Source: Candidatus Nomurabacteria bacterium (GTDB lineage: Bacteria; Patescibacteriota; Minisyncoccia; Phycocordibacterales; SBAW01). From it: a stretch of DNA of 64,000 nucleotides. Below the pieces are notes generated by a model. The model was not told the DNA's origin. It did no database searches and saw nothing but the letters and a program-made list of their open reading frames with translations. This document shows positions 13,485 to 32,889 of this stretch, in pieces (the first letter of the stretch is position 1; each line of letters starts with the position of its first letter). The stretch is from the NCBI GenBank assembly GCA_943349945.1, contig CALQZS010000001.1, forward strand, positions 130,803-194,802, written 5' to 3'. The position numbers were made by a program, and so were the translations under genes.

Positions 13485-14027
13485 TTAAACTTTTGAAGAC
13501 AAGAAATCTTTGAGTGCGGCGAAGGGTTTTATTTGCAAATATGTTTTTTCGTACTCAGCCTCGTTCATTTGCGCACGGGTTTGTGTGCAGCCGCTTGGAA
13601 TAAATATTTTGTCCCAGCCGTATCCTCCATCCCCCATTGGGGTTTGCGCTACCTCGCCGTCCATAGCACCTTCAAAAAGTTTGAGTGTCTCGCCGTCGTA
13701 ATATCCAAACACACACTTGGCCGTCGCTTTGCGGTTTTTGTCATTAAGCATCGAACAGATACTTTCAAACGAGAGGCGCTCGATAAAGAATTTTATAAAC
13801 GGCCCGGGCAAACCGCCCAACGCCTCAAACTCGAGCGACACGTCTTCGACAATAACGGGCGTCTTAATTTTCTCATACGCCTGCCGTACCTTGTGCCCCA
13901 CAATCTCTTTTAAATCCATCGATTGCAGCTCGTCCAAGTCGAGCTTTACATGGCTCACAGGCAACCCCAAATACCGGGCCAAGTAGTCGGCCTTTTTTTG
14001 GTTACCGGTGATGAAGGTGATTTGCAT
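13485..14027 (-). CDS. rdgB: non-canonical purine NTP pyrophosphatase (RdgB/HAM1 ITPase)
   Basis: MQITFITGNQKK...LPGPFIKFF..., Ham1 family motifs. Confidence 0.85.
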   Translation of the reverse strand: MQITFITGNQKKADYLARYLGLPVSHVKLDLDELQSMDLKEIVGHKVRQAYEKIKTPVIVEDVSLEFEALGGLPGPFIKFFIERLSFESICSMLNDKNRKATAKCVFGYYDGETLKLFEGAMDGEVAQTPMGDGGYGWDKIFIPSGCTQTRAQMNEAEYEKTYLQIKPFAALKDFLSSKV

Positions 14028-14036
14028 TGTGGTAAA

Positions 14037-14474
14037 TTACATCTTCCTCGAGTCATACGCCCAATGCAACAGCGCTTGCCGCTGTTTTGGGCGACAAAAA
14101 ATATCTCCAGTTCTACAATTATTTTTGATTTGCATTATATGCCTACGCATAGCGAGCCACCTTTTTATTTGCTTCTCGTCATCATCGGTCCTACGACCCA
14201 TAAAATATCTGCAGTACCACTGAAACCACCCGCGCGGGTCTTGCGGATGTATCCAGCCTTTTGCCTGCCATACCGCAAGCGACTGACTCGCGTTTATGCC
14301 AAAGTAATTCAGCTCTTTGTGCCGCTTCCCATCGGGTGATAATTTTGCACTCTTCCACCAACCTTTTGGGAACTCCTTTGGCTTGTCAGAAAAATATAAT
14401 CCACCGAACACACCAAGCTCGAGCATCTCTTTTGGCGTCAGGTCCGGCGTAAAGCGCGGGTCGAATTTCGTCAT
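14037..14474 (-). CDS. hypothetical protein (Trp-rich, conserved-looking)
   Basis: 145 aa with good coding potential and no recognisable family. Confidence 0.5.
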   Translation of the reverse strand: MTKFDPRFTPDLTPKEMLELGVFGGLYFSDKPKEFPKGWWKSAKLSPDGKRHKELNYFGINASQSLAVWQAKGWIHPQDPRGWFQWYCRYFMGRRTDDDEKQIKRWLAMRRHIMQIKNNCRTGDIFCRPKQRQALLHWAYDSRKM

Positions 14475-14480
14475 AGTTTG

Positions 14481-15245
14481 TTATTTCCTCGGCAATGGGA
14501 TAAATATACTTGTTTTCCTTTTGTACTCTGCAAACTCAGGGTTCCCCTCCAGTTTCTTTTCAAGCATCGGAACGCCAGACACTTTCAAGATCAAAAAAGT
14601 TATAGTCATAGGCCCAACAATACCAAGCCAGGCGCCGGGTACAGAGAGAGCGATGAGCCACAGCCCCCACCACTGCACTACCTCGCCAAAATAATTTGGA
14701 TGACGAGTGTACGCCCACAACCCGCTTTGCATCAACTTTCCCTTGTTCTCTGGATTTTTAATAAACCGCGCAAGTTGTGCATCGCCCAAAGCTTCAAAAT
14801 AAAAACCAACAAGCCACACAGCTACGCCTAGAAAATCGAGCAGCACAAGACTCGGCCCAGCATTTTTGTTGATAAGCAGTACCGGCGAAACAATGAGGAA
14901 CAAAAACAGGCCTTGCAAAAGATACACTTGAAAATACGAACGGATATAAAACCACTTGCCCCATTCTTTCCTCCAAGCTAGATAGCGATAGTCCTCTGCT
15001 TTGCCTTTGTTGCGTCTGTGTATGTGCCACGCTAAACGCAAACCCCAAATACTTACCAACACTCCTACCAACATCCCTCGTATACCAGAATCACCGGAAA
15101 GAAAAAAGGATGCCCCTGTCATCAGTACAAACCCGAGCCCCCACGCCACATCGGCCACATCGTTTCTTTTCCTAATCAAAGAAACCACGAACCATAGGCT
15201 CATGTACACAAGCAGTATGGCGATAAGAGTTACAAAATAACTCAT
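14481..15245 (-). CDS. DUF1295 / steroid 5-alpha-reductase-like membrane protein
   Basis: C-terminal RHPNYFGE motif and multiple TM segments. Start moved to MSYFVTL (15243-15245), giving an ATGA overlap with the upstream gene. Confidence 0.65.
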   Translation of the reverse strand: MSYFVTLIAILLVYMSLWFVVSLIRKRNDVADVAWGLGFVLMTGASFFLSGDSGIRGMLVGVLVSIWGLRLAWHIHRRNKGKAEDYRYLAWRKEWGKWFYIRSYFQVYLLQGLFLFLIVSPVLLINKNAGPSLVLLDFLGVAVWLVGFYFEALGDAQLARFIKNPENKGKLMQSGLWAYTRHPNYFGEVVQWWGLWLIALSVPGAWLGIVGPMTITFLILKVSGVPMLEKKLEGNPEFAEYKRKTSIFIPLPRK

Positions 15246-15640
15246 AAACCGATCTTGGTTGCGATGAAGTAGGTTACCGCAGAAACAGACGCCGCGAGCA
15301 CTGCACCCCACACTAAGTCAACGATGGTTACAAGAAGCGGCCAATCTTTGGTGACGGCAAGGTTAGTAAGGTCGTACGTTGCATAACAAACCAAACCAAA
15401 TAGCGCACCGAACAAAAGTGCGTGCGTCCATGAATTCTTCTCTATGGCCGGCATAATTACAAAAACCACAAGACCGACAACAAACAAAAGATAAAAGATA
15501 ATAGCCGCCGTCCAGTTTACATCTGGCTTTAGGAGCGGACCGATTTGTTTAGCGTAAAAACCCTTTGCAACGAGTCCAAGCCACACCATGTCGATGGCAA
15601 AGAAAACAGGGAGTGCTATTGCATAGAGTTTTATGAACAT
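15242..15640 (-). CDS. small integral membrane protein (DUF2177-like)
   Basis: 132 aa, 4 TM helices. Confidence 0.55.
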   Translation of the reverse strand: MFIKLYAIALPVFFAIDMVWLGLVAKGFYAKQIGPLLKPDVNWTAAIIFYLLFVVGLVVFVIMPAIEKNSWTHALLFGALFGLVCYATYDLTNLAVTKDWPLLVTIVDLVWGAVLAASVSAVTYFIATKIGL

Positions 15641-15651
15641 AAAAGATAGGA

Positions 15652-16302
15652 TTAATTAATAATTTCCACCAACACTTCATTGCGATACATCCACGGTGGA
15701 GTCCATGGTGCGCTGTATCCAGCGTATGCAGTGCTTCCCTTTGTCGCCACTCCATCACGGGCAAGTGCCGAAGCTAATTTTTCTTGCATGTCTTTTACCC
15801 GCGTATCCGAGCGATACCCCGAGAATTGCAGTACTGCATATTTCTTGGTAGGGATCATCACGATTTTCACTCTCGGATCATTTGGTGTCGGTAATGTTTC
15901 AAGGGTGTACGAGCGGGGCATACCAAAAGATATTATTTGCGAGTCACCATCAGTCGTCGCTACTACCGGTGCAGTCATAGCAATATTTTCTGATGTTTTT
16001 TCGCCTCCTACTTTTTGCGCGATGACTGGAACGGTCATCGCTATACTTTCTTTTTTTGTATTTCCGCCAAAGATATACCCAGCAACAATTCTAAAACCAT
16101 TATTCATAGATTCTCCATAAGAACCCTTTACCGTAGTCTGCGCTACGATATGTGCCGGATATTCTCGTATTTCATATCCATCTTTTATCTCAATGACAGT
16201 ATAGTCAGCTTGCTCAACACGCGAACCAAAAAATCCTGAGATAGACCAAAGCACCACAATAACAAGCAAAGCGATAAGTATAGTGCTCATATTTTTATTC
16301 AT
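15652..16302 (-). CDS. SOUL heme-binding protein family protein
   Basis: N-terminal TM helix plus the SOUL/HBP fold signature (YEIREYPAHIVAQT...AGYIFGGN). Confidence 0.7.
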   Translation of the reverse strand: MNKNMSTILIALLVIVVLWSISGFFGSRVEQADYTVIEIKDGYEIREYPAHIVAQTTVKGSYGESMNNGFRIVAGYIFGGNTKKESIAMTVPVIAQKVGGEKTSENIAMTAPVVATTDGDSQIISFGMPRSYTLETLPTPNDPRVKIVMIPTKKYAVLQFSGYRSDTRVKDMQEKLASALARDGVATKGSTAYAGYSAPWTPPWMYRNEVLVEIIN

Positions 16303-16345
16303 ATAGCTTTAGTATATAATAGTATATACTAAACTATAATAATAT
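16297..16345. promoter_or_regulatory. divergent promoter region with TAGTATATA direct/inverted repeats (candidate operator)
   Basis: ttagtatataatagtatatactaaactataataatattagtttagtatat lies between the SOUL (-) and fasciclin (+) starts. It contains a 12-bp inverted repeat atatactaaact/agtttagtatat. Confidence 0.35.
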
Positions 16346-16393
16346 TAGTTTAGTATATGCATTAACAATATTTAATCAATTTAAAATAAATAT

Positions 16394-16795
16394 ATGCAAA
16401 ATATCGTAGAAACAGCTGTCGCAGCAGGATCATTTAAAACACTGGTCACTGCAGTGCAAGCGGCAGGATTAGTAGACACTCTATCTGGTGCAGGTCCCTT
16501 CACTGTATTTGCTCCAACTGATGAGGCTTTCGCCAAAATTCCAAAAGAGACTCTCGACGCAGTCCTTGCGGATAAAGCAAAGCTAACATCTATACTTACG
16601 TACCATGTGGTGGCAGGAAAAGTAATGGCTTCTGATGTAATGGGCCTGACTTCTGCAAAGACAGTACAAGGTGATGAAGTTAAAATAGAAACTGCAGATG
16701 GAGTTATGGTAAACGACGCCAAAGTAGTACAAACAGACATAGAATGCACAAACGGAGTAATCCATGTCATCGATTCAGTCTTGATGCCAAAATAA
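16394..16795 (+). CDS. fasciclin (FAS1) domain protein
   Basis: Typical FAS1 H1/H2 motifs ([10 protein letters not shown]...[11 protein letters not shown]). Confidence 0.8.
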
Positions 16796-16814
16796 ATACA
16801 TCCGAAATAAAAAT

Positions 16815-16844
16815 AAAAAACTCTAACTTTTGTTAGAGTTTTTT
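16815..16844. terminator. bidirectional rho-independent terminator
   Basis: aaaaaactctaacttttgttagagtttttt, with A-run and T-run on both sides, between convergent genes. Confidence 0.6.
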
Positions 16845-16855
16845 ATTTTTATTGA

Positions 16856-17245
16856 TTAGGCGTCTATTTTTGCCGCAAGAATAAAATCATTTTGAGAGAG
16901 TCCGTTAATTGCATGGGTGGACAGCGTGAGCTCTACAAATTTGTAGTTTTTCAGATATATGTCCGGATGATGCCCCTCTGATTCAGCCAAAACGCCAACC
17001 TTATTTACAAAAACAAGAGCTTCATTGAAGTCCTTAAAACTATATCGCTTGGCGATACTTTTAGCATCAAGCGAAATATCCCAGCCGGGAATTTGCTTGC
17101 ATAATATATCTGCCTCTATCTTTGAAAAAGGAATGACACCACCATCGCATGCCATGCATTTTTGTTGAGTCAGTGGCGAGTTAGTTTTAGGAGTAGGGGC
17201 CTGACTCTGTATAGTTGTATGTTCCATATGCTTGTAGTATAGCAA
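16856..17245 (-). CDS. phhB: 4a-hydroxytetrahydrobiopterin dehydratase (PCD/DCoH)
   Basis: EGHHPDI...ELTLSTHA motif. Confidence 0.8.
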   Translation of the reverse strand: MLYYKHMEHTTIQSQAPTPKTNSPLTQQKCMACDGGVIPFSKIEADILCKQIPGWDISLDAKSIAKRYSFKDFNEALVFVNKVGVLAESEGHHPDIYLKNYKFVELTLSTHAINGLSQNDFILAAKIDA

Positions 17246-17268
17246 AATTAAGAATGGCTACAAATTTT

Positions 17269-18939
17269 TTATTTCGTATCAATATGATTCCACGCAAAAC
17301 CCTTGTCTCCATACACTTTTTTACCTGGGTTTAAAATAGCAAGCGGGTCAAAAATATCTTTTGTCTTTTCAAAGAGACGTACGATCTCAGGGGTAAACAT
17401 CTGCGAAAGGTACGAGGTACGTAAAAGTCCGTCATTATGTTCTCCAGACATAGAACCTCCATACTGAAATACGAGAGTATAGACTTCATCCATGAGTGTA
17501 TGGAGAGTCTCAACTATTCCTTCTTTATGAATGTCAATAAGCGGAATAATATGAAAGTTTGCATCTCCCATATGTCCGGCCACAGTATAAATAAGATCAT
17601 ATTTCGAAAAAATAATTTCAAGTTTGGGAAGAAACTCCGGGAGATCTTTTGTGTGTACGACAATATCATCAATTGTGGGTGCCGTTCGATACCCTCGCAA
17701 CTTCTGGCGAAGCAGGTTGAAGCTTTCGCGCCTGAATGTCCAATACTTTTTTGCTTCTTGTTCCGAGTGCGTCAATGTAATAGGAAATCCGAATACCTTC
17801 ATCTCGTTATATGCTGACTGTACCTGCTCTGCAACTTCTTCTTCAGTATCCCCTGCAAATTCTGCCATGAGAATTATCTTTGGAACTCCGCCAGTGATTG
17901 CCATCCAAAACTCAGGCAAAAATTGGAACCCGAGCGTCAACATAGTACCCCCCATGCTTTTTGCAATTGAACCAAAGAATTTAATCGCTATTTTAAACGT
18001 ATGATCATCATAAGATTCGATGGTTTCAGGTGTATGTTTTAAAAGTCTTGGAATTATTTCTCCTAGTTGCGTTGTGGCTGGCAAAAACATAACGAGCATT
18101 CTGGAATGTTTTTTGGGGACAATTCCACTCAATGTCGCTTCAGTCACACAGGCAAGGGTTCCCTGACTGCCCACAACGAGCTTTGATAGGTCAAATACTC
18201 CTGATTCTTTATCGTAGACATTCCAAAGATAGTACCCTGAAGAATTTTTTGTTACTGTCGGTTTTGCTTGTTGCAGTACATCATAGTTGTCCTTTACAAG
18301 GGCAAATATCTCTCGATGAATGCGCCCGCTTTCAGTTTGTTCTTCGCATTTTGCGATAAGTTTCTCTGCATGAAGTGGTTCTAGAACATCTTCTTCTCCA
18401 TTTGCAAATACAACACGAAGCGAGCGAACATACTTTTCCGTCTTTCCATAGGTAAGTGTCTTTTCACCTCCTGAGTTATTAGAGACAATACCTCCAATCG
18501 CAGCCAAATCACGAGACGCCGGATAGCTTGGCAAAAGCCAGCCGTGCGCAAGAGTCTTTTTCTCAAAATCACTATAGTATACCCCCGGCTCTGTTATGGC
18601 TTCTGTGTCGGTGACAGAAAATACATGATTCATGTATCTCATTGTGTCTACGACGATGGATTCCGAAAGTGGGCCACCGGTCATACAGGTACCGGCGGCA
18701 CGCATGGTGAGGGATAACGGTACACCCTGATCTATATCTTTAGTTTTTTTTGCATGCACATAAGCAACAAGTTTTGCAATGTCTTCTTTACTTTTTGGGT
18801 AGACAACAATGCGGGGTTTTACATAAAAAAGGCTTGTGTCTCGCGCAGCTTTTTCTCGATCACTGTCTAAGATAGAAATATCTCCTTTGATTATTGTACG
18901 CAAATCACCAGCGACATCCGTATAAAAAATTTCATTCAT
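17269..18939 (-). CDS. FAD-linked oxidase (D-lactate dehydrogenase/glycolate oxidase GlcD-like)
   Basis: 556 aa with an FAD-binding PCMH domain and an FAD-oxidase C-terminal domain. Confidence 0.8.
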   Translation of the reverse strand: MNEIFYTDVAGDLRTIIKGDISILDSDREKAARDTSLFYVKPRIVVYPKSKEDIAKLVAYVHAKKTKDIDQGVPLSLTMRAAGTCMTGGPLSESIVVDTMRYMNHVFSVTDTEAITEPGVYYSDFEKKTLAHGWLLPSYPASRDLAAIGGIVSNNSGGEKTLTYGKTEKYVRSLRVVFANGEEDVLEPLHAEKLIAKCEEQTESGRIHREIFALVKDNYDVLQQAKPTVTKNSSGYYLWNVYDKESGVFDLSKLVVGSQGTLACVTEATLSGIVPKKHSRMLVMFLPATTQLGEIIPRLLKHTPETIESYDDHTFKIAIKFFGSIAKSMGGTMLTLGFQFLPEFWMAITGGVPKIILMAEFAGDTEEEVAEQVQSAYNEMKVFGFPITLTHSEQEAKKYWTFRRESFNLLRQKLRGYRTAPTIDDIVVHTKDLPEFLPKLEIIFSKYDLIYTVAGHMGDANFHIIPLIDIHKEGIVETLHTLMDEVYTLVFQYGGSMSGEHNDGLLRTSYLSQMFTPEIVRLFEKTKDIFDPLAILNPGKKVYGDKGFAWNHIDTK

Positions 18940-19154
18940 ACATTTATTATAACATTATCGGACTCATTTTACTTAGCGTTTGCTTCGAGTTTTTCTTCGC
19001 TGTATATACCAGTACACATAGAGAGAAAGTAGAAGGATTATATTCGGAATAAATATGATTGGTTGACCCCAGGATATTCCATTGATATGGAAGTCTGAAA
19101 TCGGCCACAAAAAAGGCGTTGGGAAAAAGGCAAAATCGTGTGTAGGTATATCAA

Positions 19155-19445
19155 CTAAAATATGAAGTGGCCACGCGAGCGTAAGCTTGGCAAAATGCTT
19201 TTTGCCAAGAATAACGCATAAACGACCAAGCTATGAGTAATACCATAGACGGTGAAGACGTACGGCGGAATCGTTTCTAAGCTTGGCCGACCCATTGCGC
19301 CACCAGAAACTAGATTTATTATAAAAAGAGGCGCGAACGCCAAGAGGTCTGGCCCTATACCAAAGAGAAATGCAGTCACATAATCCCGCCTGCGCATGCG
19401 ACCAAATGCAACACCTCCATATAATCCGTGAGAGATAATGTCCAT
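19155..19445 (-). pseudogene. possible truncated/frameshifted membrane-bound metal-dependent hydrolase (DUF457-like) remnant
   Basis: 96-aa ORF MDIISHGLYGG.... Additional hydrophobic reading frame continues after the stop in 18960-19150, with an overlapping alternative frame at 19231-19449. Confidence 0.3.
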
Positions 19446-19473
19446 ACATTTATTATACTATTTGTATGTGAAA

Positions 19474-20934
19474 TTATTTTTTAGACAGATACTCCTTTGC
19501 AATTTTTAAATAATTTTCTTTTTTCTTTTTTTCCATCTTATCAAAAAGTCTCGGCATCATCGATAGTCGATGATTACTTGTGAAAAAGTCACGGTGACTA
19601 GCTATGAAATTCCAATACAGTGCAGTCCACTTCTCTTCCCAATCGCCACCAGTATAATCTGACATTTTTTTAATGTAATTGCTACCCGAGATATATGGTT
19701 TGGTAGCAAAAATACCACCATCAGCGAACTGACTCATCCCATATACATTTGGTACCATTACCCAATCATACGCATCAACATACATTGCCATAAACCATTG
19801 ATACACATAATCGGGATTAACCTGAGAAAGCAACATAAAGTTACCGATAACCATCAATCGTTCGATATGATGATTGTATCCATAGTGCAGAGCTTTCTTG
19901 ATAGCGCTGTCGACCGGAGCAATACCAGTATCTCCAGTCCAAAATCCTATTGGCAAGTTGCGGGAATGTTTCCAAAAATTCTTCGTGCGCATGACGGCAC
20001 CATCACACTCATAGGAAGCGCGCATAAACTCACGCCACCCAATGATCTGTCGTACAAAACCTTCGAGTGAATTTATAGGTATAGCGTGAGTATCTGCATA
20101 TACTATTGCACTATCGATTACCTGCCTTGGGTCGAGCAATCCAATATTTATGAGAGCTGACAATGTAGAATGAAAAAGCCGTACGCTTTTCGTAGAAAGC
20201 GCGTCCTCATACACACCAAAATCTGCAAAGCGGTCTTCTAAAAATACCTGCAAAAATTTTTTGGCATCCTTGTGTGTATATGGTAGCCAGCAGGCTATCT
20301 CTCCATATTTTTCAGCTTGTATTGTATCGAGCCACTTCTTCATTTTTGATACATCAAAATCATTTTCAAAAACAGTATCCTTGGGGAGAGTTGTATCTCG
20401 AGCAAGTTTTTTTCGATTGTCTGCATCAAAGCTCCACGCTCCCCATCTGGGCTTTCCATGTCCGTCCATCAAGATACCCAAGTCCACTCGAATTTTCTTG
20501 TAGAACATCGCCATATTTTTCTTTGAGCTTTTGTATCTTGCTATTGATTCCTCCTTTGGCAAAATAAAAAGTGGTGACTCATACCAAACCCGCTTTATCT
20601 TGGAAGCTGTTATAGCCCGCTCCAAATAGAAGTCAGTAGTATCGACAATATGAAGTTCTTGTATCCCTTCTTTTTTTAAATAATCAAAAATATCTTTCGT
20701 CTTCGGATACTGTTCAATCGTCAGGCATTTTACTTTGTACCCCTCTTTTTTCAAAAGCTCTGCATATGCGCCCATACTTAATTTGTGCAAAATTAGCTTT
20801 TGATAATGAATGGGGTTGTGCGACAGAATCAAGGGCTCTTCAATCAAAAAAATAATCCGTGCTTTTTGTATAGCCGGTGATTTTATAAAAAGTTGATGAG
20901 GATAGACCAATGTTGCTTCTTTCATAGTATTCAT
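19474..20934 (-). CDS. cryptochrome/photolyase-related protein (COG3046-type)
   Basis: 486 aa with GWREF and NHHIERLMVIGNFMLL motifs, in an AT-rich gene. Confidence 0.8.
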   Translation of the reverse strand: MNTMKEATLVYPHQLFIKSPAIQKARIIFLIEEPLILSHNPIHYQKLILHKLSMGAYAELLKKEGYKVKCLTIEQYPKTKDIFDYLKKEGIQELHIVDTTDFYLERAITASKIKRVWYESPLFILPKEESIARYKSSKKNMAMFYKKIRVDLGILMDGHGKPRWGAWSFDADNRKKLARDTTLPKDTVFENDFDVSKMKKWLDTIQAEKYGEIACWLPYTHKDAKKFLQVFLEDRFADFGVYEDALSTKSVRLFHSTLSALINIGLLDPRQVIDSAIVYADTHAIPINSLEGFVRQIIGWREFMRASYECDGAVMRTKNFWKHSRNLPIGFWTGDTGIAPVDSAIKKALHYGYNHHIERLMVIGNFMLLSQVNPDYVYQWFMAMYVDAYDWVMVPNVYGMSQFADGGIFATKPYISGSNYIKKMSDYTGGDWEEKWTALYWNFIASHRDFFTSNHRLSMMPRLFDKMEKKKKENYLKIAKEYLSKK

Positions 20935-20937
20935 CTA

Positions 20938-21204
20938 TCAGGTTGATAGTATTAAAATCAAAATAGCGAAGTATACGATCAGATAAAAACGATAGAAATT
21001 AATCACCCGCAACTCTGCACTCTTCGTGCGCTGATGAAAGCCAAAAAGCACTTTGATCTCCTCCCAAAAAACGGGCTTTACATTAATCCACCAGCTATCA
21101 GTTTGATAGACCATCTTCCTAAATCGACTGCGAAACAATCCCAAAGGAAAACTCCAGATAAAAAACGCAACGATGGCAATCGTGTGTATGGTTATAGTAT
21201 CCAT
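20938..21204 (-). CDS. small membrane protein (translationally coupled to photolyase-related gene)
   Basis: 88 aa, two TM segments, with its stop 3 nt from the downstream start. Confidence 0.4.
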   Translation of the reverse strand: MDTITIHTIAIVAFFIWSFPLGLFRSRFRKMVYQTDSWWINVKPVFWEEIKVLFGFHQRTKSAELRVINFYRFYLIVYFAILILILST

Positions 21205-21325
21205 TTATGCCTCTTCAGTCCTTACTTCTATTATAAACTTTATTCTCTCAAGAGCTACCATTCCCTCCCCCTCCTTTTTGCGAACCTCGACCTTCAGGGG
21301 CAAAAGATACTTTGGCCATAAATTT

Positions 21326-22225
21326 TTACTCCACCGGACAGGTGTTTTTGCCCATCGCGGCGTAGAACCCACACCAGCTAAATATTGCTTCAAAGAATGC
21401 AAGGCCGGAGAAGAAGATGAGGATGGGGCTCCAGGTGGTGGTGATGGCCCATAGGAGCAATGCAATGCCAATGGCGAGGCGGACGAGTCGGTCGGACTTG
21501 CCGATATTTTTAGCAACTCCACGCACAGAGTTTTTAGCAACCTTTTTCAAAATCGCGCGGTAGACGAAGCCCACGATGAACGCAAGAATATATATAATGA
21601 CAATCAGTCCCCACCCAAAGGGCGAGAGGATAAAGCCGATTGGCGATTCGTTAAAAAAATCCTTTTTAATCTGCGGGATGAGCGTGAGTGCGTTTAAGCC
21701 TTCTTTGCCGTCAAACTTCTCTATCTCACCGATGGCGAGCGAGTACTTGCTGTCGTTGTTGGGGCTTGTCACACGGATCTCGTAGATGCCTACATCAGCA
21801 CGCGCTTTATACTCTGGTCCTTGCCAGTAGGTGTCGTAGCCAAATGGTTCAAAAAACTGTTTCCATGCAAATGTCGCGCCATCGAGCACGGCGATTTGCT
21901 TGCCGTCTTTTAGTACCACAGCGGAGACATCTTTCTTTTGCCCTGCAATGTCTGGCACCAAGACTCCGACATACAGATTAAACGCTTGCTTCGCATCTAT
22001 AGTATATACATCCGGCTCGCCCATGAGCTTGCCATAATATGCTTTGGAAACTTCGGGGTCAGTAACTGATGTAAGTCTATCCTCTGTAATTCGAGGCTGA
22101 TGTGCGGAAGCCAAGCTCGGAGTCAACGTAAATATAGAGACAAACAACGCAAGCAGCGTGAGTGATAGTAGTTTGGAATTTATGTTATATCCGAAAACGT
22201 TCAAGATGCACCTAGTATACAGCAC
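21326..22225 (-). CDS. secreted protein with C-terminal DUF2892-like transmembrane domain
   Basis: Signal peptide plus a C-terminal RLVRLAIG...SWCGFYAAMGKNTCP motif. Confidence 0.5.
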   Translation of the reverse strand: MLYTRCILNVFGYNINSKLLSLTLLALFVSIFTLTPSLASAHQPRITEDRLTSVTDPEVSKAYYGKLMGEPDVYTIDAKQAFNLYVGVLVPDIAGQKKDVSAVVLKDGKQIAVLDGATFAWKQFFEPFGYDTYWQGPEYKARADVGIYEIRVTSPNNDSKYSLAIGEIEKFDGKEGLNALTLIPQIKKDFFNESPIGFILSPFGWGLIVIIYILAFIVGFVYRAILKKVAKNSVRGVAKNIGKSDRLVRLAIGIALLLWAITTTWSPILIFFSGLAFFEAIFSWCGFYAAMGKNTCPVE

Positions 22226-22230
22226 CTAGT

Positions 22231-22599
22231 CTAGAAGTAAGGGATGAGTAAACTAAGTCCCTTCCCCATCAGAAAGCTGTATATCAGCAACCCAATGAAC
22301 GGTAGAGGCACCAGCCATAAAAACCATCTTGGATGGTCAGGTTTTTTTGAAAAAACCATGTACCAATTCAACGCAAATATAAGAGGTGTACAAATTGACA
22401 AGAGAGCACTTGTACCAAAACCGAGCAGTCCAAACACTTCCCCACTACTCCATACGAAAGAGTCGTCCTGCACAATAAACAAAAAGGCTACGCTCGACCA
22501 AACAACAGCTATTAGAAACACCTTTACTAAAAGCGCTTCGTAAATTCCAATAGCAGCCAAAACTATTTTTACAGGCGTGTTGATGGTGAATCTATGCAT
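22231..22599 (-). CDS. hypothetical membrane protein
   Basis: Start moved to ATG 22597-22599 (MHRFTINTPVKIV...), because the track ORF's N-terminus overlaps a tRNA on the same strand. Confidence 0.45.
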   Translation of the reverse strand: MHRFTINTPVKIVLAAIGIYEALLVKVFLIAVVWSSVAFLFIVQDDSFVWSSGEVFGLLGFGTSALLSICTPLIFALNWYMVFSKKPDHPRWFLWLVPLPFIGLLIYSFLMGKGLSLLIPYF

Positions 22600-22627
22600 G
22601 TAGGTAATTATATACCCATAACCGTTG

Positions 22628-22714
22628 CGGAGAGAGCGAGATTCGAACTCGCGGGCCCAATTAAGGGCCGACAGTTTAGTAAACTGTTGATTTAAACCAC
22701 TCATCCATCTCTCC
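22628..22714 (-). tRNA. type II (long variable arm) tRNA, Ser-like, anticodon apparently ACU
   Basis: Acceptor GGAGAGA/TCTCTCC, T-arm GCGAG-TTCGAAT-CTCGC, variable arm GGCCC-TTAATT-GGGCC, and anticodon stem ACAGT/ACTGT with loop TTACTAA. Confidence 0.7.
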
Positions 22715-22926
22715 ATATATTCGCACTGCTCAAATGGAGCTGCTCGGCGCAGATCGATGGAATCGTGGTCGGCACATGGTGCCGGCTTGAGAAGAAGCAG
22801 TTCTTCTCTTCGCCCATCTCATCCATCTCTCCTTGCCCTTGAGGATACTACAGTATATAGAGGAGCTCAATTAAAGCCTTTTTGAGCGTGTAAAGTAGCC
22901 CCTATTATGGTACTGTGGCGTGTATT

Positions 22927-23011
22927 GGAGACGTGTCAGAGTGGTCGAATGTGCCTCCTTGCTAAGGAGGTAGGGCGCAAGCCCTCGTGGGTTCGAATCC
23001 CACCGTCTCCG
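22927..23011 (+). tRNA. tRNA-Ser (GCU)
   Basis: Acceptor GGAGACG/CGTCTCC, anticodon loop TTGCTAA between CCTCC/GGAGG, long variable arm, and T-arm GTGGG-TTCGAAT-CCCAC. Confidence 0.85.
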
Positions 23012-23049
23012 CAAAGCTAAATTTTGATATATTCTCCTATCTAAATTTT

Positions 23050-23230
23050 GCTTATGTGTGAACGGGAGAGGGATTCGAAGGACGGAAGAAAAGCTCTGGG
23101 AGAGCTTTTCTGAGTCGGGGTCGCGAGATTTTTCAGCAGAAAAATACTTGTGACCGAATCCCACTGTCCACAAATACTACGCGGCGTAGAATTGAGTCGA
23201 AGCCGAATCGTTTTAATCGTCTCCGCTTAG
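23050..23230. repeat. degenerate tRNA-end fragments (possible att-site scars)
   Basis: gggagagggattcgaagg resembles the end of the minus-strand tRNA. gaccgaatcccactgtccaca and atcgtctccgc resemble the 3' end of tRNA-Ser(GCU), TTCGAATCCCACCGTCTCCGCA. Confidence 0.35.
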
Positions 23231-23298
23231 TTTTTTGTAGTGTTCTACTGTAGAGCATTTTATGTGGTATAAACAAGCCATATCATTAATTTTTTAAT

Positions 23299-23931
23299 AT
23301 GTCTCGACAAACGATATTAATATTAGTCCTTATTGTTTTGGTGGTTGGCGTAAGCGGGTATTGGTATTTTAGTCACCAAAGCAAGGTTACCGACGTACCT
23401 ACAGAGGTGGTTGCAACGACAAATACTACCCATGTAGAAGAAGTAAAGGTGGAAAATAATCGAAAAAGTGCCGTAACGTCTAATGGTTTGGAATTTGACC
23501 CGGCTAAGGTACAGCCCGGGGAAAAATTCGGTGCGTTTACAGTTATTGCTTCGAGCGCTTATACGATTGGCGATGAACACTCTTACTCAGTAAGTTTCAA
23601 AGGACCTGTAAATATCCAGGGTGTATTAAACAATTTTGAGCCTAGTATGTGTGGTGCAGTACTGGAGATTTCTACATCAACTTCCGAAACCTTGCCTAGA
23701 GTGAGCGGTGAAAAGGTGGGGAGCATGAATGTATACCTTGACCTAGATGGTTTGCCAGAGGCAGAGCGTGTTACTTATACGAGCGCCGGTTTTACAACCC
23801 CTTCCGGGCAACTACTCCAAGAGGGTGATGTGTTAGAAGTAACTGTTGATACGTTTTTGGCTTCGCACCAAGGGAAAGATTGTAGCGGCAAGAGGATACA
23901 GGTCACCTCATTTAAGAAGCTTTCTATCTAA
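23299..23931 (+). CDS. hypothetical secreted/membrane-anchored protein
   Basis: 210 aa with an N-terminal TM/signal anchor. Confidence 0.5.
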   Translation: MSRQTILILVLIVLVVGVSGYWYFSHQSKVTDVPTEVVATTNTTHVEEVKVENNRKSAVTSNGLEFDPAKVQPGEKFGAFTVIASSAYTIGDEHSYSVSFKGPVNIQGVLNNFEPSMCGAVLEISTSTSETLPRVSGEKVGSMNVYLDLDGLPEAERVTYTSAGFTTPSGQLLQEGDVLEVTVDTFLASHQGKDCSGKRIQVTSFKKLSI

Positions 23932-24022
23932 CTGCGCAGCAAAATAGAAAACTTCGCCTCAGTACATATTTGTGACCGAGTCTCACTCTCTCTCCGCCAT
24001 ACATATACAACTTTTTTAAGAG

Positions 24023-24070
24023 TTGATATCCGCATTGACAATATCAACTAAACAGTATAAACTGTTGACA
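24023..24070 (+). promoter_or_regulatory. promoter region of fic with two palindromic operator-like sites
   Basis: gttgatat-N10-atatcaac and aacagtataaactgtt overlap two TTGACA hexamers just upstream of the ATG. Confidence 0.4.
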
Positions 24071-24075
24071 TTCAT

Positions 24076-25257
24076 ATGAGCAACATCAATAGACCAAAAA
24101 TAGGTCGCTACGTAGCCCAAAAAGAGGGGTTCAAATCCTTCACCCCTTATGACTTTCCACCCAAGGAAGGCTTTGTTATTAGTCCTAAATTGTATAAAAA
24201 ACTTGAGGATGCGATTCGACTAGTCGGCAAGCTTGACGGTATCACTCGCCTGCTACCCGACAAAGACTTCTTTCTTCTTATGTTCATCAAAAAGGACGCC
24301 GCCTATTCAAGTCAAATAGAAGGCACCAAAGCTACCCTACAGGATGCCGTGGCGGCACCAGTTACAGAAGAAAAATCACGTCGACATCCTGATGTAGATG
24401 ACATAGTCCATTATGTTGAGGCCGTAAACTATGGCATCAAACGAAGCGAGACACTCCCTATTTCTCTGCGGTTAGTACGAGAGATACACGAGAAGTTAAT
24501 GACAGGTGCACGCGCCACACAACATGCCTATCCTGGCGAATTTAGACGTTCCCAAAATTGGATTGGGGGTAAAATTCCTCAAGATGCCTCCTTTGTGCCA
24601 CCTGCGCCGCACGATATGGACAAATCACTGGATGATTTGGAAAAATTCATCCATGCAAAAGATGATTACCCCTCACTTATAAAAGCGGGTCTTTTGCATG
24701 CCCAATTCGAAACAATTCACCCATTTACAGACGGCAACGGACGTACAGGACGCATGCTTATTGCTATGTACATGCACCACACAAAACTTCTTGAATTACC
24801 TATATTGTATCTATCTAGTTACTTCAAAAAGTATCAAAAACTCTACTACCAAAAGCTTCAGAATTACCATGAGGAAGATTCCGATATAGAAGGTTGGCTA
24901 GAGTTCTTTCTTGAAGGTGTTGCTGAAATTGCTGAATCTTCAATCGAAACCTGTACTAATATCACAGCCCTTCGAGACCGAGACTTTGCGAAAATGCAAA
25001 AACTTGGCAAACAGTCTGCTGAATCAACACTCGAAGTGGTGCGCAAACTCTTCAGCCAACCAATAGTCGGGGTTGCAGAAATAATAAATTGGACTGGGTT
25101 TAGCCCACAAGGGGCGTACAACATGATTGAGCGACTTAAAGCTCTAGGAATTCTAGAGCCTCTTGGTGATGCAGAATATGGACAAAAATACATCTATGCA
25201 GACTACTACAGGCTCTTTGATGATACTTTTAATACAACAAAAGTAAGCAAAAAATAG
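24076..25257 (+). CDS. fic: Fic family protein (AMPylator/adenylyltransferase), class II with N-terminal inhibitory motif
   Basis: Active-site HPFTDGNGRTGR (HxFx(D/E)GNGRxxR) and the inhibitory helix motif SSQIEG ((S/T)xxxE(G/N)). C-terminal wHTH-like region. Confidence 0.85.
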   Translation: MSNINRPKIGRYVAQKEGFKSFTPYDFPPKEGFVISPKLYKKLEDAIRLVGKLDGITRLLPDKDFFLLMFIKKDAAYSSQIEGTKATLQDAVAAPVTEEKSRRHPDVDDIVHYVEAVNYGIKRSETLPISLRLVREIHEKLMTGARATQHAYPGEFRRSQNWIGGKIPQDASFVPPAPHDMDKSLDDLEKFIHAKDDYPSLIKAGLLHAQFETIHPFTDGNGRTGRMLIAMYMHHTKLLELPILYLSSYFKKYQKLYYQKLQNYHEEDSDIEGWLEFFLEGVAEIAESSIETCTNITALRDRDFAKMQKLGKQSAESTLEVVRKLFSQPIVGVAEIINWTGFSPQGAYNMIERLKALGILEPLGDAEYGQKYIYADYYRLFDDTFNTTKVSKK

Positions 25258-25258
25258 T

Positions 25259-25828
25259 ATGAAAAAACTCATCCTCGCTTCTACATCACCCCGACGCAAG
25301 GAGGTGCTCGAGAAAACAGGCCTATCGTTTGAGATTGTGCCAAGCGACTACGAAGAAGACATGACCCTCGACATGCCGCCCGAGGAGTTGGCCGAGTATC
25401 TTTCGGCTGGCAAGGCGCGGGCCGTTGCGGCCAAAAACCCAGGAGCCGTAGTTATTGCGGCCGACACCTTTGTAGTGCACGAGCATCATCGCCTGGGCAA
25501 GCCACACACCAACGAGCGCGCAAAAGAGATGCTAGAGATGCTCAGCGGCAAAGCACACTATATAGTAACCGGTGTGACTATTGTCGCTGGCGACCAAGTG
25601 TGCTCCTTCCACGAAAAGACTTCGGTGCACATGGCAGAGTTGTCGGAAGCGTTAATAGAGCAATATATAGCCACCGGCGAGCCACTCGACAAAGCTGGCG
25701 CCTATGCGCTGCAAGAGCTGGGCGCTATGCTTATAGAAAAAACAGAGGGTGACTTTTTTAATGCCATGGGCCTGCCGCTCCGCCGGCTTGTGCACGAGCT
25801 CCGGGCCTTTGGGGTGGAGGTTTTGTAA
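25259..25828 (+). CDS. maf: Maf-like nucleoside triphosphate pyrophosphatase (septum formation protein Maf)
   Basis: LILASTSPRRKEVL...IAADTFV.. Maf signature. It starts 1 nt after the fic stop. Confidence 0.85.
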   Translation: MKKLILASTSPRRKEVLEKTGLSFEIVPSDYEEDMTLDMPPEELAEYLSAGKARAVAAKNPGAVVIAADTFVVHEHHRLGKPHTNERAKEMLEMLSGKAHYIVTGVTIVAGDQVCSFHEKTSVHMAELSEALIEQYIATGEPLDKAGAYALQELGAMLIEKTEGDFFNAMGLPLRRLVHELRAFGVEVL

Positions 25829-25858
25829 GACAGAACATAACCTCTTGCGGTACTTATA

Positions 25859-26149
25859 ATGCATGGTACTGTATCGCCAGTAGCCGTGCGTATTCCATTA
25901 CCCACAAAAGTTGGAGAGGAACGATCCATGAACAGCGCGCACATCTCCGGCTCGCAACACACTCCTACGACAGTAGGCGGGGGCACGCTCCACGACATCG
26001 CCGAGGACACGGTCTCATCTACCAACGACCCTTCCTTATTTCCTCGGTCTGTAACAGGCTCCACCTTCACCTGCGACCATGGAAATTGCGGGTGCATGGT
26101 GCAAATCGTGTTCAGGACGGTCACCCGAAACAACCCCTTCGACAACTGA
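25859..26149 (+). CDS. hypothetical small Cys-containing protein (uncertain)
   Basis: 96-aa ORF ending CDHGNCGC..., followed directly by a terminator. Coding status unproven. Confidence 0.3.
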   Translation: MHGTVSPVAVRIPLPTKVGEERSMNSAHISGSQHTPTTVGGGTLHDIAEDTVSSTNDPSLFPRSVTGSTFTCDHGNCGCMVQIVFRTVTRNNPFDN

Positions 26150-26155
26150 CCCACC

Positions 26156-26187
26156 GCCGGCCCACAAGCCGGCGTTTCTTTTTTTGT
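26156..26187 (+). terminator. rho-independent terminator
   Basis: cgccggcccacaagccggcg followed by TTTCTTTTTTT. Confidence 0.55.
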
Positions 26188-26188
26188 A

Positions 26189-27643
26189 TTAAAACTCGAT
26201 CTTTCTATATTCAGGTTTAAACGCACACCCTGCACATGCCACGTCGGACACAGCAGCACCTTGCGCAATCGCCTCGCCCAACCAGCCGGTAAGCCGCGTC
26301 GTGTCTTCCGTATAGTCACTCGAGCGCAACACAATAACCGCCACTCTGTGTTTTTCTGGCCCGTTTGATACGGTAAATACCGACACCATGGTCTCGCCTG
26401 CCGCAGTCGTCTGCCCCACCTTGCCGCCCACAAAGCTTTTTTCGCCCGAAAAGATATTGAGGTTTTGGAGCGCATATACCGCGCCATCGTTTGCTTTAAT
26501 CGTCTTGGCCGGAGCGCGCGTAATATCCCACACAAACGACTTTTTATTTGCCAAGTACATAGCTAAACGAAACAGATCGTCGGGAGTTGATTTGTTGTAT
26601 GGCGACATGCCGCTTGGGTCGGCAAACTGGGTCGCAGTCATCCCCAGTGCCTCTGCGGTAGTATTCATCCATTCTACAAAACCCTTCGTACCATAAAAAC
26701 TGGCCAACATGTCGGCCACGTGGTTGTTAGACTCCATCAAAAGTGGGTACAGCAAGTCGCCGATAAAAAATCTTTTCTGCTCTGTACTGCTTGCAAGCGC
26801 GCGCGACAGCTCCCCTTCCCGCACGGGCACCTCCTTTTCAAAACTGATTATCTCGCTGGCCACCAGTGCGGTCATGAGCTTGGCTACAGACGCCACAGGC
26901 ATCTCTCGGTCTGCGTTGCGCTCGAGGTACACATCGCCGGAGTCTATGTCGGCCACCAAGTAGGCTTCGGCCGAAACAAGCGGCGCTTCCAACTGTGCCA
27001 ACACCCACGGCGTAGTAGACGCCGCCCCATGCGCATCATAGACAAACAATCCCGTACCCTTGTCGGCAAAAGCAAAAATCTCTTGTGCATCTTCGGTCGA
27101 GAGCCGTATGCACCCACCCGAGAATGTCGAGGCCACCGGCGTGCCGTCTGGATAGGTTGGCCACCCATGGATAAAGTAGTTGCCATAAAACTGCATGCTG
27201 TAGGGCATGTTGACGCTCCCTATGGTCGAGAAGTGATTCTCTTCTTTTGTTTGTACCGAATAAAATCCGCTTGGCGTCTCCCACGGCGTCCCCGGCTTGC
27301 CTTTGGTCAAAATGGGGTACGTGGCGGTGGTGGTGCCATTTTCATACAAAGACACCTGCATAGCATCCAGGTCGGCGACCACAAACTTGCCTGTGTGCGG
27401 CACCACCTGTGCAATAGACAGCGCGTTAATTACCCGCTTGGGTGTGCGCGGCGTTATTACGGGTGTGGACGTCGCAAGCGGCACTTCCGCAACAGTCGCC
27501 ACAGATTGTGTGTTTGGCCATGTTTGCAAGTACAGCAGCCCCGCACGCCCACCCAACCCCACCACAAGCACTAGCGCCACAAAAATACCCACAAAGTACA
27601 AACCTCGCTTGTCGACTGCATGCTCTATACCACCGTACTCCAT
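26189..27643 (-). CDS. fused L,D-transpeptidase (YkuD) / D-alanyl-D-alanine carboxypeptidase (PBP5-like serine peptidase) membrane-anchored protein
   Basis: N-terminal TM helix. The LDT catalytic region is HGWPTYPDG...STFSGGCIRL. The DD-CPase motifs are SVAK (SxxK), SNN (SxN) and GKVGQT (KTG-like). Confidence 0.75.
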   Translation of the reverse strand: MEYGGIEHAVDKRGLYFVGIFVALVLVVGLGGRAGLLYLQTWPNTQSVATVAEVPLATSTPVITPRTPKRVINALSIAQVVPHTGKFVVADLDAMQVSLYENGTTTATYPILTKGKPGTPWETPSGFYSVQTKEENHFSTIGSVNMPYSMQFYGNYFIHGWPTYPDGTPVASTFSGGCIRLSTEDAQEIFAFADKGTGLFVYDAHGAASTTPWVLAQLEAPLVSAEAYLVADIDSGDVYLERNADREMPVASVAKLMTALVASEIISFEKEVPVREGELSRALASSTEQKRFFIGDLLYPLLMESNNHVADMLASFYGTKGFVEWMNTTAEALGMTATQFADPSGMSPYNKSTPDDLFRLAMYLANKKSFVWDITRAPAKTIKANDGAVYALQNLNIFSGEKSFVGGKVGQTTAAGETMVSVFTVSNGPEKHRVAVIVLRSSDYTEDTTRLTGWLGEAIAQGAAVSDVACAGCAFKPEYRKIEF

Positions 27644-27644
27644 A

Positions 27645-28472
27645 CTATATATGTGGCTGCAGCACAGGCACCAAAGCGCCCTCTGGGGTTATGTCGTAGG
27701 TGATGCCCAACGGGTCTTGCGGCAGCTCGCGCAACACACCCGCCCGCACCAAGTCTTCTAGAGTACTTGGGTACGCCCCCACAGCGCTGTGGTATTGCTC
27801 GACCGCCTGCTCCAGCATGCTGCGCAGCTCTATATGCAGCACATTATGTAGCGCCTGGGCGCGCACCACCTCGTCGGCAGAGTTTTCATAAATAGCTATC
27901 CAGATTTGTTTTGTCTCTTCTCGGATGTCACCCCGCAACCCATAGTTGTGCGCAGACAGTTTGATACCCTCGGGCACGCCCGGGGTGTTTGCAGCGATGT
28001 TCATATACAGTGCTGCATTTGTTGAGTCTTTGAGCGCCAGATGGTACGCAGTGGCTACGTAGTATGGTATGCGCCAGTCGCCCAAGTTTTGTGCGACTCC
28101 TTGCCGGCCAATGGCTATGGCGCGCTCTGTTGCCTCTTGGTCGTTGTGCGGCGCCATCAAAGTTACAAAAGCATACAGGTAGCTAAACTGCGGGTCCAGA
28201 GCCACCATGGCCGCTATGCGCATGGCCGCACTGTCGAGCGCCGCGCCGCCTGTGCCGCCTATGTCTTGTATGAGCCCGAGCCAAAGCAGCGACGCCATAG
28301 CCGAAGACAAACCCAGCGTAGCGCCACGCAACACCGGGGCCGGGAGTGGCTGGTGCGGTTGGTATGGCACCGACGTTTGGTATTTGTCGTGTACCAGCTG
28401 CACAGCAGCCACCGCACACAAGAGTGCCACCAGCACTGCGCCGCATATGGTTTGTATATGCCACTTTGCCAT
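27645..28472 (-). CDS. hypothetical membrane-anchored protein
   Basis: 275 aa with an N-terminal TM helix. It is packed 1 nt from the downstream LDT/CPase gene. Confidence 0.45.
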   Translation of the reverse strand: MAKWHIQTICGAVLVALLCAVAAVQLVHDKYQTSVPYQPHQPLPAPVLRGATLGLSSAMASLLWLGLIQDIGGTGGAALDSAAMRIAAMVALDPQFSYLYAFVTLMAPHNDQEATERAIAIGRQGVAQNLGDWRIPYYVATAYHLALKDSTNAALYMNIAANTPGVPEGIKLSAHNYGLRGDIREETKQIWIAIYENSADEVVRAQALHNVLHIELRSMLEQAVEQYHSAVGAYPSTLEDLVRAGVLRELPQDPLGITYDITPEGALVPVLQPHI

Positions 28473-28475
28473 AGG

Positions 28476-29953: not shown

Positions 29954-29985
29954 AGAGCTATTATACGCAGTGCAGGTGCCCCGTG

Positions 29986-31637: not shown

Positions 31638-31710
31638 ATATAGAGACGGATGAGAGCCTCTACTCTTTCATCGCCTACCTATTCTACCCTATACAACCCG
31701 TACACTAGAC

Positions 31711-31745
31711 GCAAAAACACCACCCCTAAACAGGGTGGTGTTTTT
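31711..31745. terminator. bidirectional rho-independent terminator (terminates the minus-strand hammerhead-containing transcript)
   Basis: caccacccctaaacagggtggtg flanked by an A-run and a T-run (gcaaaaa / ttttt). Confidence 0.6.
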
Positions 31746-32802: not shown

Positions 32803-32889
32803 GTAGTTCGAGGCGCTCATAACCAAACAGGCAAAATAGCCCTATACATAAGGCTTTTTAGGCACTCTAGAGCCTGCCTTGCTTTGTAG

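Follow-up and report, generated by a model that had tools for sequence, protein, structure and literature searches.

Recombination sites that act as folded single strands are known from the integron attC and from the attP(+) hairpin of the CTX phage (XerCD). Integrative elements that target the 3' end (T-loop) of tRNA and tmRNA genes and stack in tandem, integrase-less satellites included, form another known group (Williams 2002, cited in PMC9897764), and tycheposons are an example of such elements (bioRxiv 10.1101/2020.12.28.424599). Among Fic proteins, dimeric SoFic of Shewanella oneidensis was reported to bind the promoter of its own gene, at most 100 bp from the start codon, and to AMPylate EF-Tu (bioRxiv 10.64898/2026.07.09.737422), and the same preprint cites CccR of Yersinia as an autoregulator. 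We analyzed a stretch of 64,000 nucleotides (the window) of Candidatus Nomurabacteria bacterium, a member of the candidate phyla radiation (CPR, Patescibacteria), taken from contig CALQZS010000001.1 (positions 130,803 to 194,802), in which a small structured element lies between a tRNA-Ser(GCU) gene and the core gene maf. The interval from 23.0 to 25.3 kb is best explained, with a probability of roughly 0.55, as an insertion hot spot organized around this element, which copies the end of the neighboring tRNA and would belong to a recombination or mobile module.

The element is one member of a family. A metagenome scan with a two-anchor pattern built from both arms yielded 21 loci, the interiors of which contained two hairpins with compensatory differences and the conserved junction GAG-N-CGGGGTCGCG. 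The family core reads ...AAGG-N-CGGA-hairpin-GAG-N'-CGGGGTCGCG-long hairpin-GTGAC..., with compensatory base changes, and the complete element is a three-way junction of about 80-180 nt. In the covariation test, for which the three-way-junction structure was specified by the analyst, paired cells amounted to 84.4% in the alignment compared to 70.7% in shuffles, and the cells changed on both sides numbered 98 compared to 38.5. The covariation score was 0.395, compared to 0.152 in shuffles (0 of 500) and 0.06-0.145 with slid partners. The middle pair of P2, at the junction, was found as C-G, G-C, A-U, U-A, and U-G. A covariance model recovered 26 or more copies with scores of up to 112 bits, while the reverse strand gave at most 20 bits. 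Copies were also detected by this model in loci that had been fetched for other reasons, namely L019 (close to maf), L096 (close to a Fic homologue), and L099.

All copies whose neighbor is visible directly follow the 3' end of a tRNA or tmRNA gene and share its strand. The neighbors comprised seven tRNA types (Ser, Arg, Tyr, Lys, Val, Ala, and Gly) and tmRNA. The right arm and tail repeat up to 21 nt of the tRNA 3' end, whereas the left arm is this stretch in reverse complement, exact over up to 24 nt (L070). When the arms were compared with their own tRNA, they beat all permutations (0 of 20000 for each arm), and they tracked the T-loop variants TTCGAAT, TTCGACT (L019), TTCGATT (L070), and TTCAATT (tmRNA, L096). 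The copy with the last variant occupies 8086-8223 (-) of L096, directly after the tmRNA gene; a Fic homologue with 83% identity to the one in the window is 2.9 kb away.

A conserved fold of this kind might also be expected of a structured non-coding RNA gene, either a mimic, decoy, or antisense of the tRNA 3' half or a processing signal between tRNA and mRNA, with the arms held identical to the tRNA through gene conversion. The fold is specific to the tRNA-sense strand, covaries strongly, and retains a G-U pair in 19 of 20 sequences. In four tRNA clusters (L072, L077, L086, and L087) the element is flanked by two tRNA genes, one on either side. Its tail stops exactly at the tRNA end, either at the discriminator or at an encoded CCA (the latter in L076), and a protein-coding gene often begins 10-30 nt downstream. 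All of this would suit an RNA gene. However, a terminator-like spacer hairpin (stem plus U-run) precedes the left arm by a few nucleotides in at least 7 of 14 loci, as judged by eye from RNAfold predictions only, and there is no room for a promoter after it. Each arm resembles the tRNA independently, and the extended arm-to-arm helix is not maintained beyond the T-stem, which suggests copying of DNA rather than selection on an RNA helix. Tandem, nested, and truncated copies are common and, together with cassette arrays, typify mobile or recombinogenic DNA. Many CPR tRNA loci (L012, L013, L022, and L030 among them) have no element according to the covariance model, and the downstream genes are mutually unrelated. 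An RNA gene is the main rival explanation of the family, but it seems rather unlikely.

The array in L082 (1272-6620) lies downstream of tRNA-Ser(GGA) and contains a DUF2971 gene, a gene for a TraB-like protein, a methyltransferase gene, and an open reading frame (ORF) of unknown function. Behind each of its ORFs stands a conserved motif of some 32 nt (AAAAGTTCTTGATA...). For three of the four ORFs, a copy of the tRNA-Ser 3' end, a long hairpin of the terminator type, and a variant of the element that is larger come next, while the second ORF has the motif only. In the close relative L099, the shared TTCGAATCCC is the point at which a copy of tRNA-Ser(GCU) passes into the left-arm flank and the spacer hairpin in reverse complement, together with a degenerate 3' half of a tRNA, which indicates recombination at that site. 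Behind this fusion come a VanW gene and, with its element, another complete tRNA pair. The chimeric tRNA-Ser(GCT), with its 3' part replaced in this way, was observed at 3923-4004 (-) of L099 and at 1086-1167 (-) of L102; ARAGORN still calls it a tRNA, and it adjoins the duplicated tRNA pair and the VanW gene. Because of the spacer terminators, the independent arms, the tandem and truncated copies, the L082 array, and the L099 fusion, we favor a recombination or mobile module over an RNA gene, and the element most likely represents a small module of this kind in its chromosomal form.

In the window, the + strand after tRNA-Ser(GCU) folds far better than shuffles (z = -4.9), and inverted and direct T-arm-like fragments pair with each other. 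The same 157 nt are present in the sister species L011 at 97.5% identity, compared to about 70-80% for the neighboring genes. The arms of the window copy are somewhat decayed, with 13/14 matching positions in the right arm and a 10-nt match to the tRNA in the left arm. A preliminary description of this DNA had reported two divergent tRNA-Ser genes and, behind one of them, three tRNA-end-like strings. Both genes were recovered by ARAGORN and Rfam, and the strings are all present, gggagagggattcgaagg at 23064-23081, gaccgaatcccactgtccaca at 23152-23172, and aatcgtctccgc at 23215-23226; a fourth such copy was located at 23966-23999. Taken singly, only the second fragment (CGAATCCCACTGTC match) clearly exceeds chance, with 13/14 identity to the T-arm, which was equaled in 2 of 500 shuffles. 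Scores of 20-24 recur elsewhere in the window, but 3 of the 6 best non-tRNA matches are within 1 kb downstream of the tRNA. The inverted fragment does not derive from the second tRNA-Ser but is the left arm of the element, and the 3' end of tRNA-Ser(ACT) has no further copy anywhere else at up to 3 mismatches. Between 23194 and 23226 there is probably a collapsed second copy of the element. It closes, in AATCGTCTCCGC, with the exact 9-nt acceptor 3' strand of tRNA-Ser(GCT), and it was not detected by the covariance model.

That description took the strings for scars of successive tRNA-targeting integrative elements, which would make them inert, decaying attL/attR remnants of classical islands whose integrases had since been lost. 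The 3' ends of tRNA genes are indeed classical integration targets with partial tRNA copies as a known by-product (PMC9897764, which cites Williams 2002). The insert of L011 terminates in a degenerate tRNA 3' end, and the cargo varies among sister species. On the other hand, a core of about 100 nt with compensatory substitutions has been kept across dozens of distant genomes, at seven tRNA types and tmRNA, and the 97.5% identity is found between species whose neighboring genes share only about 79%. Ordinary att recombination by an integrase yields no inverted copy of a tRNA end, and the copies with variant arms recovered by the covariance model speak against an artefact of the search pattern. 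The principal scars are thus not decayed leftovers but a pair of strands that form the closing helix of an element which is conserved and covaries. Scars of tRNA-targeting elements are largely refuted by the covariation and the family evidence, and we regard this explanation as improbable.

Searches of Rfam 15, run with gathering as well as permissive cutoffs on the window, the region, and six further loci, returned only tRNA and tmRNA. There was no match over 23014-23300 at E <= 10 and none over the element copies of the six other loci at E <= 0.05. A weak permuted-tmRNA match (E 0.71) is explained by a real tRNA end followed by a GGATTCGA-type left arm. Other candidates were rejected as well. 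A hidden or split tRNA gene was not called by ARAGORN, and the 5' strand of the T-stem is absent beside either arm. A leader or riboswitch of maf is at odds with the downstream genes of other loci, which are unrelated (CCA-adding enzyme, HIT, membrane proteins, and other tRNAs). A retron msr/msd has a similar overall shape, yet there is no adjacent reverse transcriptase. The consensus cores of hammerhead, K-turn, and other small motifs were absent by inspection, again with no match in Rfam. No link to phages emerged from two pattern scans of viral contigs, a protein scan, or a blastn search against phage genomes. Literature searches found no description of such an element; a paper on group I introns in Patescibacteria tRNAs deals with anticodon-loop introns, which are different. 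The element is apparently undescribed.

An insertion hot spot occupies the slot that runs from tRNA-Ser(GCU) to maf. In both L011 and L099 the element is followed by 25 nt and the ATG of maf, whereas the window has an insert of 2.09 kb between the element and the start codon of maf. The inserted hyp210 and fic genes (23169-25258) are absent from both sister species, so that the alignment to related genomes revealed an empty site for this insertion; it revealed none for the low-GC block to the left. The insert consists of, in order, the collapsed second copy, hyp210, a repeat of the element end with a tRNA-Ser-like end, and the fic unit. The 25-nt repeats that flank hyp210 (18/21 match, none expected by chance) copy the element end rather than the tRNA itself, and 23966-23999 is the orthologue of the right arm and tail in the sister species. 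The hyp210 protein belongs to no Pfam family, and among 5.8 billion proteins it has only 4 homologues. The cargo differs between the sister species, since L011 carries elsewhere in this slot a 625-bp insert with a 121-aa zinc-ribbon ORF, ending in the degenerate tRNA 3' end, and L099 carries the VanW gene. What may be tRNA 3'-end copies bound the insertions. Repeated insertion downstream of tRNA-Ser(GCU), as claimed before, is borne out.

The earlier statement that no integrase remains is also correct over 1-56.4 kb of the window. The precomputed Pfam annotation of contigs matching this part (95.7-100% nucleotide identity) showed no integrase or recombinase, integron integrase included, and Pfam scans of 13-28 kb showed no recombinase family. 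No IntI or Xer protein was linked to the element.

Y1 HUH (IS200/RAYT-like) proteins act on single-stranded DNA hairpins, and the window encodes two Y1_Tnp (PF01797) paralogues at 3858-4556 (+) and 47623-48321 (-), which are 30% identical, stand alone among core genes, and have HUH-like (HAH/HFH) and Tyr (GxYxS) motifs. The element could then be a repeat similar to miniature inverted-repeat transposable elements (MITEs) or repetitive extragenic palindromes (REPs), moved in trans by a transposase such as these; it is small and multi-copy, and its arms would act as terminal inverted repeats of 10-24 nt. However, the ends of transposons are constant, whereas the arms follow the neighboring tRNA and vary with the target. 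IS200/IS605-type elements produce no long target duplication, while the duplicated segment here is a tRNA end of 13-21 nt. Furthermore, neither Y1 gene is flanked by a copy of the element, and no Y1 gene was present in the element loci examined. A MITE-like origin is accordingly very improbable.

For the recombination or mobile module, we propose that one strand folds and the arms pair, by which a duplex copy of the T-loop/T-stem region of the tRNA gene would be rebuilt. This duplex could serve as an att-like site, in principle like the integron attC or the CTX-phage attP. A trans-acting enzyme would recombine there and leave a new tRNA-end-like target each time, and cassettes and partial copies would pile up. 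The observed order of tRNA, new 3' end with terminator, inverted arm, loop, direct arm, and old 3' end would fit the integration of a folded single strand. In its full form, with an undescribed CPR module whose folded single-strand site mimics the T-arm/acceptor end of the adjacent tRNA or tmRNA and a trans enzyme that stacks gene cassettes, the proposal is tentative.

Several points weigh against such a module. The element has no linked recombinase, and no integrase gene was found in the window at 1-56 kb or among the annotated neighboring genes. Neither an excised form nor a tRNA site empty of the element was found, and all three close relatives carry the element after tRNA-Ser(GCU). The G-U pair kept in 19 of 20 sequences and the strand-specific fold would be shown by a functional RNA too, and since terminators of tRNA genes can leak, the element may be transcribed. 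A module of this kind offers no account of how the two arms are made to fit each new tRNA, and a classical att-carrying element would need to be specialized for each tRNA. The metagenome pattern fixed 24 nt of the arms, so that the invariance of the arms in those 21 loci is built in, and variant arms are known from four loci only (L019, L070, L096, and L082). Finally, the hyp210 module has no complete element at its far end, and it could have arisen by homologous recombination between element copies instead of site-specific insertion.

The second gene of the insert encodes a Fic protein with the catalytic motif HxFx(D/E)GNGRxxR, present as HPFTDGNGRTGR at aa 215-226 (24718-24753; Pfam Fic 4e-20). 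The inhibitory motif S78-S-Q-I-E82-G83 (SSQIEG, aa 78-83, 24307-24324; Pfam Fic_N 5e-18) is N-terminal to this core, and the protein is thus of class II, in agreement with the SxxxEG motif given in the preliminary description. The SoFic model of PADLOC aligned at residues 18-382 of 393 (E 5e-107), the alignments with the PDB entries of SoFic and 9vjc extended to residues 364-369, and the best local alignment with solved SoFic-like chains covered residues 38-366 (phmmer E 1e-27 to 1e-30). As judged by these matches, the gene is a SoFic-type defense gene and a new member of a known anti-phage family. Its homologues in Uhrbacteria, Peregrinibacteria, Parcubacteria, and Bacteroidota are 80-88% identical, and often they are inside type I restriction-modification operons or beside other defense genes, while some are alone in core regions.

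The palindromes that had been noticed over the fic promoter are real and form an operator that is conserved across loci. Half-sites of the form GTTKAYAT, its complement, and GTTKAYAT frame the -35 and -10 boxes at -54, -35, and -12 in 7 of 8 independent loci. The exception is L096, where the first two half-sites are shifted by 3 nt to -51 and -32 and the third has no exact match. Position 4 of the half-site (G or T) is the same across the half-sites within each locus and covaries between loci. The fic ATG is 12 nt past the -10 box, so that the leader is very short. The similarity of fic DNA between loci begins at the first operator half-site and stops at the stop codon, and therefore the travelling unit is the promoter with its gene. 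As stated before, maf starts 1 nt after the fic stop codon. Its native 25 nt upstream were replaced by the fic cassette, and maf is now probably co-transcribed from the fic promoter. Fic most likely acts like its characterized relatives. A Fic dimer would bind the three half-sites through the winged helix-turn-helix (wHTH) at its C terminus and repress its own promoter and now also maf; upon displacement of the inhibitory Glu82, it might AMPylate a target, for instance EF-Tu, and halt translation in the course of a phage infection. The three-half-site operator, conserved and covarying between loci, adds to a defense family whose promoter binding was reported only in 2026. The coordinates of these features are shown in Table 1.

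Table 1. Features of the insertion slot and of its surroundings (positions in the window).
Feature	Position	Strand	Remarks
Low-GC block	13519..23029	no strand	GC 0.43; Ham1, then SOUL, FAD oxidase, DPRP, YgaP, then tRNA pair
tRNA-Ser, anticodon ACT	22627..22714	-	ARAGORN; Rfam tRNA 55.8 bits
tRNA-Ser(GCT)	22927..23012	+	ARAGORN, Rfam; 3' end TTCGAATCCCACCGTCTCCGCA copied by the element arms
Spacer hairpin H0	23014..23053	+	AAGCTAAATTTTGATA / TATCTAAATTTTGCTT; separates tRNA and element
Three-way-junction element	23056..23176	+	Covariance model R1 104.2 bits, E 1e-27; fold z = -4.9; covariation
Element left arm	23064-23081	+	Inverted copy of tRNA T-loop and T-stem 3' strand
Element hairpin H1	23087-23111	+	
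Element conserved junction	23112-23127	+	GAGTCGGGGTCGCGAG
Element long hairpin H2	loop 23134-23139	+	CAGCAG loop
Direct repeat 1	23144..23168	+	ATACTTGTGACCGAATCCCACTGTC; H2 end and right arm
Element right arm and tail	23152-23172	+	Direct copy of tRNA 3' end
Probable collapsed second copy	23194..23226	+	Left-arm-like GAGTCGAAGCC, then GAATCG...AATCGTCTCCGC; read from sequence
hyp210	23299..23931	+	210 aa, N-terminal hydrophobic segment
Direct repeat 2 and tRNA-Ser-like 3' end	23966..23999 (repeat 23966-23990)	+	ATATTTGTGACCGAGTCTCACTCTCTCTCCGCCA
Fic promoter and operator	24022..24071	+	-35 TTGACA 24035-40, -10 TAAACT 24058-63, 17-nt spacing
Fic operator half-sites	24022-24029; 24041-24048; 24064-24071	+	GTTGATAT; ATATCAAC; GTTGACAT
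SoFic-type class II Fic	24076..25257	+	393 aa, Fic_N and Fic domains, C-terminal wHTH region; Pfam, PDB matches, PADLOC
maf	25259..25828	+	Nucleotide pyrophosphatase family, core gene; ATG 25259

The region is surrounded by core genes, which include a type IV pilus/type II secretion system cluster, maf, a penicillin-binding protein gene, ribosomal protein genes, and tmRNA with SmpB. The GC content was 0.426 over 13519-23029 and 0.421 over 23169-25258, compared to 0.519 (1-12222) and 0.549 (25259-40000) in the flanks. The dip reported previously for about 15.6-25.3 kb is therefore real, with a minimum of 0.33-0.43 at 16.0-21.2 kb, but it sets in at about 13.4 kb instead of 15.6 kb. The accessory content given for it was confirmed by Pfam (SOUL, fasciclin, Pterin_4a, FAD oxidase, DPRP, DUF1295, DUF2177, and YgaP-like genes). 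It had, however, been regarded as one island, whereas the block of 13519-23029 is shared between species and is a unit separate from the lineage-specific insertion at 23.17-25.26 kb. The island is real, yet composite and common to several species.

From Ham1 to the tRNA pair, a segment flanked by the pilus genes and maf, the genes follow one order in every relative found; all of them carry the block, and no empty site for it was present among them. The preliminary description would have read such conservation as ancestry, which holds for the gene order alone, while the identity values show recent movement. The 9.5-kb tract of 13519-23029 is 98.5% identical to L099, although the flanks there are only 73.4% and 78.5% identical. 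Because of this identity of 98.5% inside compared to 73-79% in the flanks, a recent exchange of the block between species is indicated, most simply via homologous replacement. The FAD oxidase protein is identical in at least 23 contigs, and compared with L011 the block is a mosaic, in which tracts of 99-100% identity alternate with tracts of 55-70%. The att-like repeats that might have been expected are missing: no repeats bounding 13.5-23.0 kb were found, and there is no copy of either tRNA near 13.5 or 15.6 kb. Loci L012-L034 share only maf with the window and are uninformative on the island (synteny beyond the genus).

Three small slots inside or beside the block differ between strains. At its left edge, 12223-13518 is variable and here contains a GcrA-like gene (GC about 0.6) and a 203-aa ORF; in L089, where the flanks are 96-98% identical, a DUF218 gene is present, and other relatives have an 85-aa ORF. 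A second slot, in the interval of the FAD oxidase and photolyase-related genes (19021-19457), contains a 96-aa ORF in the window, a YdjM-like gene in L099 and L102, and an ABC transporter with a GDSL lipase (4.2 kb) in L011 and L100. At the DUF2177/SOUL junction, 66 nt (15637-15702) are 86% identical to L011 1359-1424, the edge of this 4.2-kb ABC-transporter insertion. The region 21558-22608, with the 5' two-thirds of the YgaP-like gene and a 161-aa ORF next to the tRNA, is 55-74% identical to L011, with 97-100% on both sides, a pattern that suggests fast-evolving or swapped surface proteins.

The tRNA genes themselves showed further peculiarities. The sequence of tRNA-Ser(ACT) is 100% identical in L011 and L099, and its A at the wobble position is unusual for bacteria outside tRNA-Arg(ACG). 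An exact 15-nt copy of its 5' end (22700-22714), CTCATCCATCTCTCC, is present at 22818-22832, 104 nt upstream of the gene and inside the spacer that separates both tRNA genes; the copy occurs in L011 too. The tRNA-Ile gene at 36531-36603 (-) has the anticodon TAT (UAU) instead of the usual lysidine-modified CAU type.

CPR bacteria have tiny genomes in which the gain and swap of genes are poorly known, and the element would give a concrete and testable route of gene capture. If the full proposal is true, it would mean integron-like gene capture with tRNA ends as the attachment site, in organisms thought poor in mobile elements, and the cassettes stacked behind tRNA genes, promoter-bearing or promoterless, would include defense genes. 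The element would also account for many of the partial-tRNA scars met by annotation pipelines. Since no Rfam family exists, the covariance model would be useful for annotation whether the element proves to be a DNA site or an RNA. Moreover, the low-GC block, where identity steps up from 73-79% to 98.5%, is a clean case of recent exchange between species in an uncultured lineage.

Compared with the described systems, the window Fic shares with SoFic and CccR the (S/T)xxxE(G/N) motif in an N-terminal helix, the HxFx(D/E)GNGRxxR core, and the wHTH. It matches the model of SoFic, which PADLOC lists as a single-gene anti-phage system, over its full length, and its inverted repeats, at most 60 bp from the start codon, would agree with the binding of SoFic to the first 100 bp upstream. 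Unlike SoFic and CccR, it is hosted by a CPR bacterium and belongs to a subfamily that is unusually uniform across phyla (80-88%). The element resembles MITE and REP/RAYT systems in being small, non-coding, hairpin-forming, and multi-copy, with Y1 HUH genes in the same genome, but it differs in its target-derived arms, its placement strictly at tRNA ends, and the absence of a link to the Y1 genes.

Like the tRNA-targeting integrative elements, the element lies directly 3' of tRNA or tmRNA genes, direct repeats resembling the tRNA end may bound the inserts, tandem arrays are formed, and the cargo varies between close relatives, defense genes included. In contrast to them, it has no integrase, the repeated unit is a conserved and covarying three-way junction of about 120 nt, and this unit holds two copies of the tRNA end, one inverted and one direct, with one core found at seven tRNA types and tmRNA. 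Compared with attC and the CTX attP(+), the integron R''/R' motifs (RYYYAAC / GTTRRRY) are absent, the arms are tRNA-derived (GAGGGATTCG / CGAATCCCTC) and vary from locus to locus, and the target is the tRNA T-arm. The likeness to these sites would lie in a structure conserved beyond sequence, in imperfect inverted arms that, when folded, may rebuild a target-like duplex (P1), in a strand-specific fold, and in cassette arrays (L082) that need no recombinase gene in the cassette. The order predicted for folded-strand integration, which is target 5' part, new 3' end, cargo, inverted arm, loop, direct arm, and old 3' end, is likewise that of the element.

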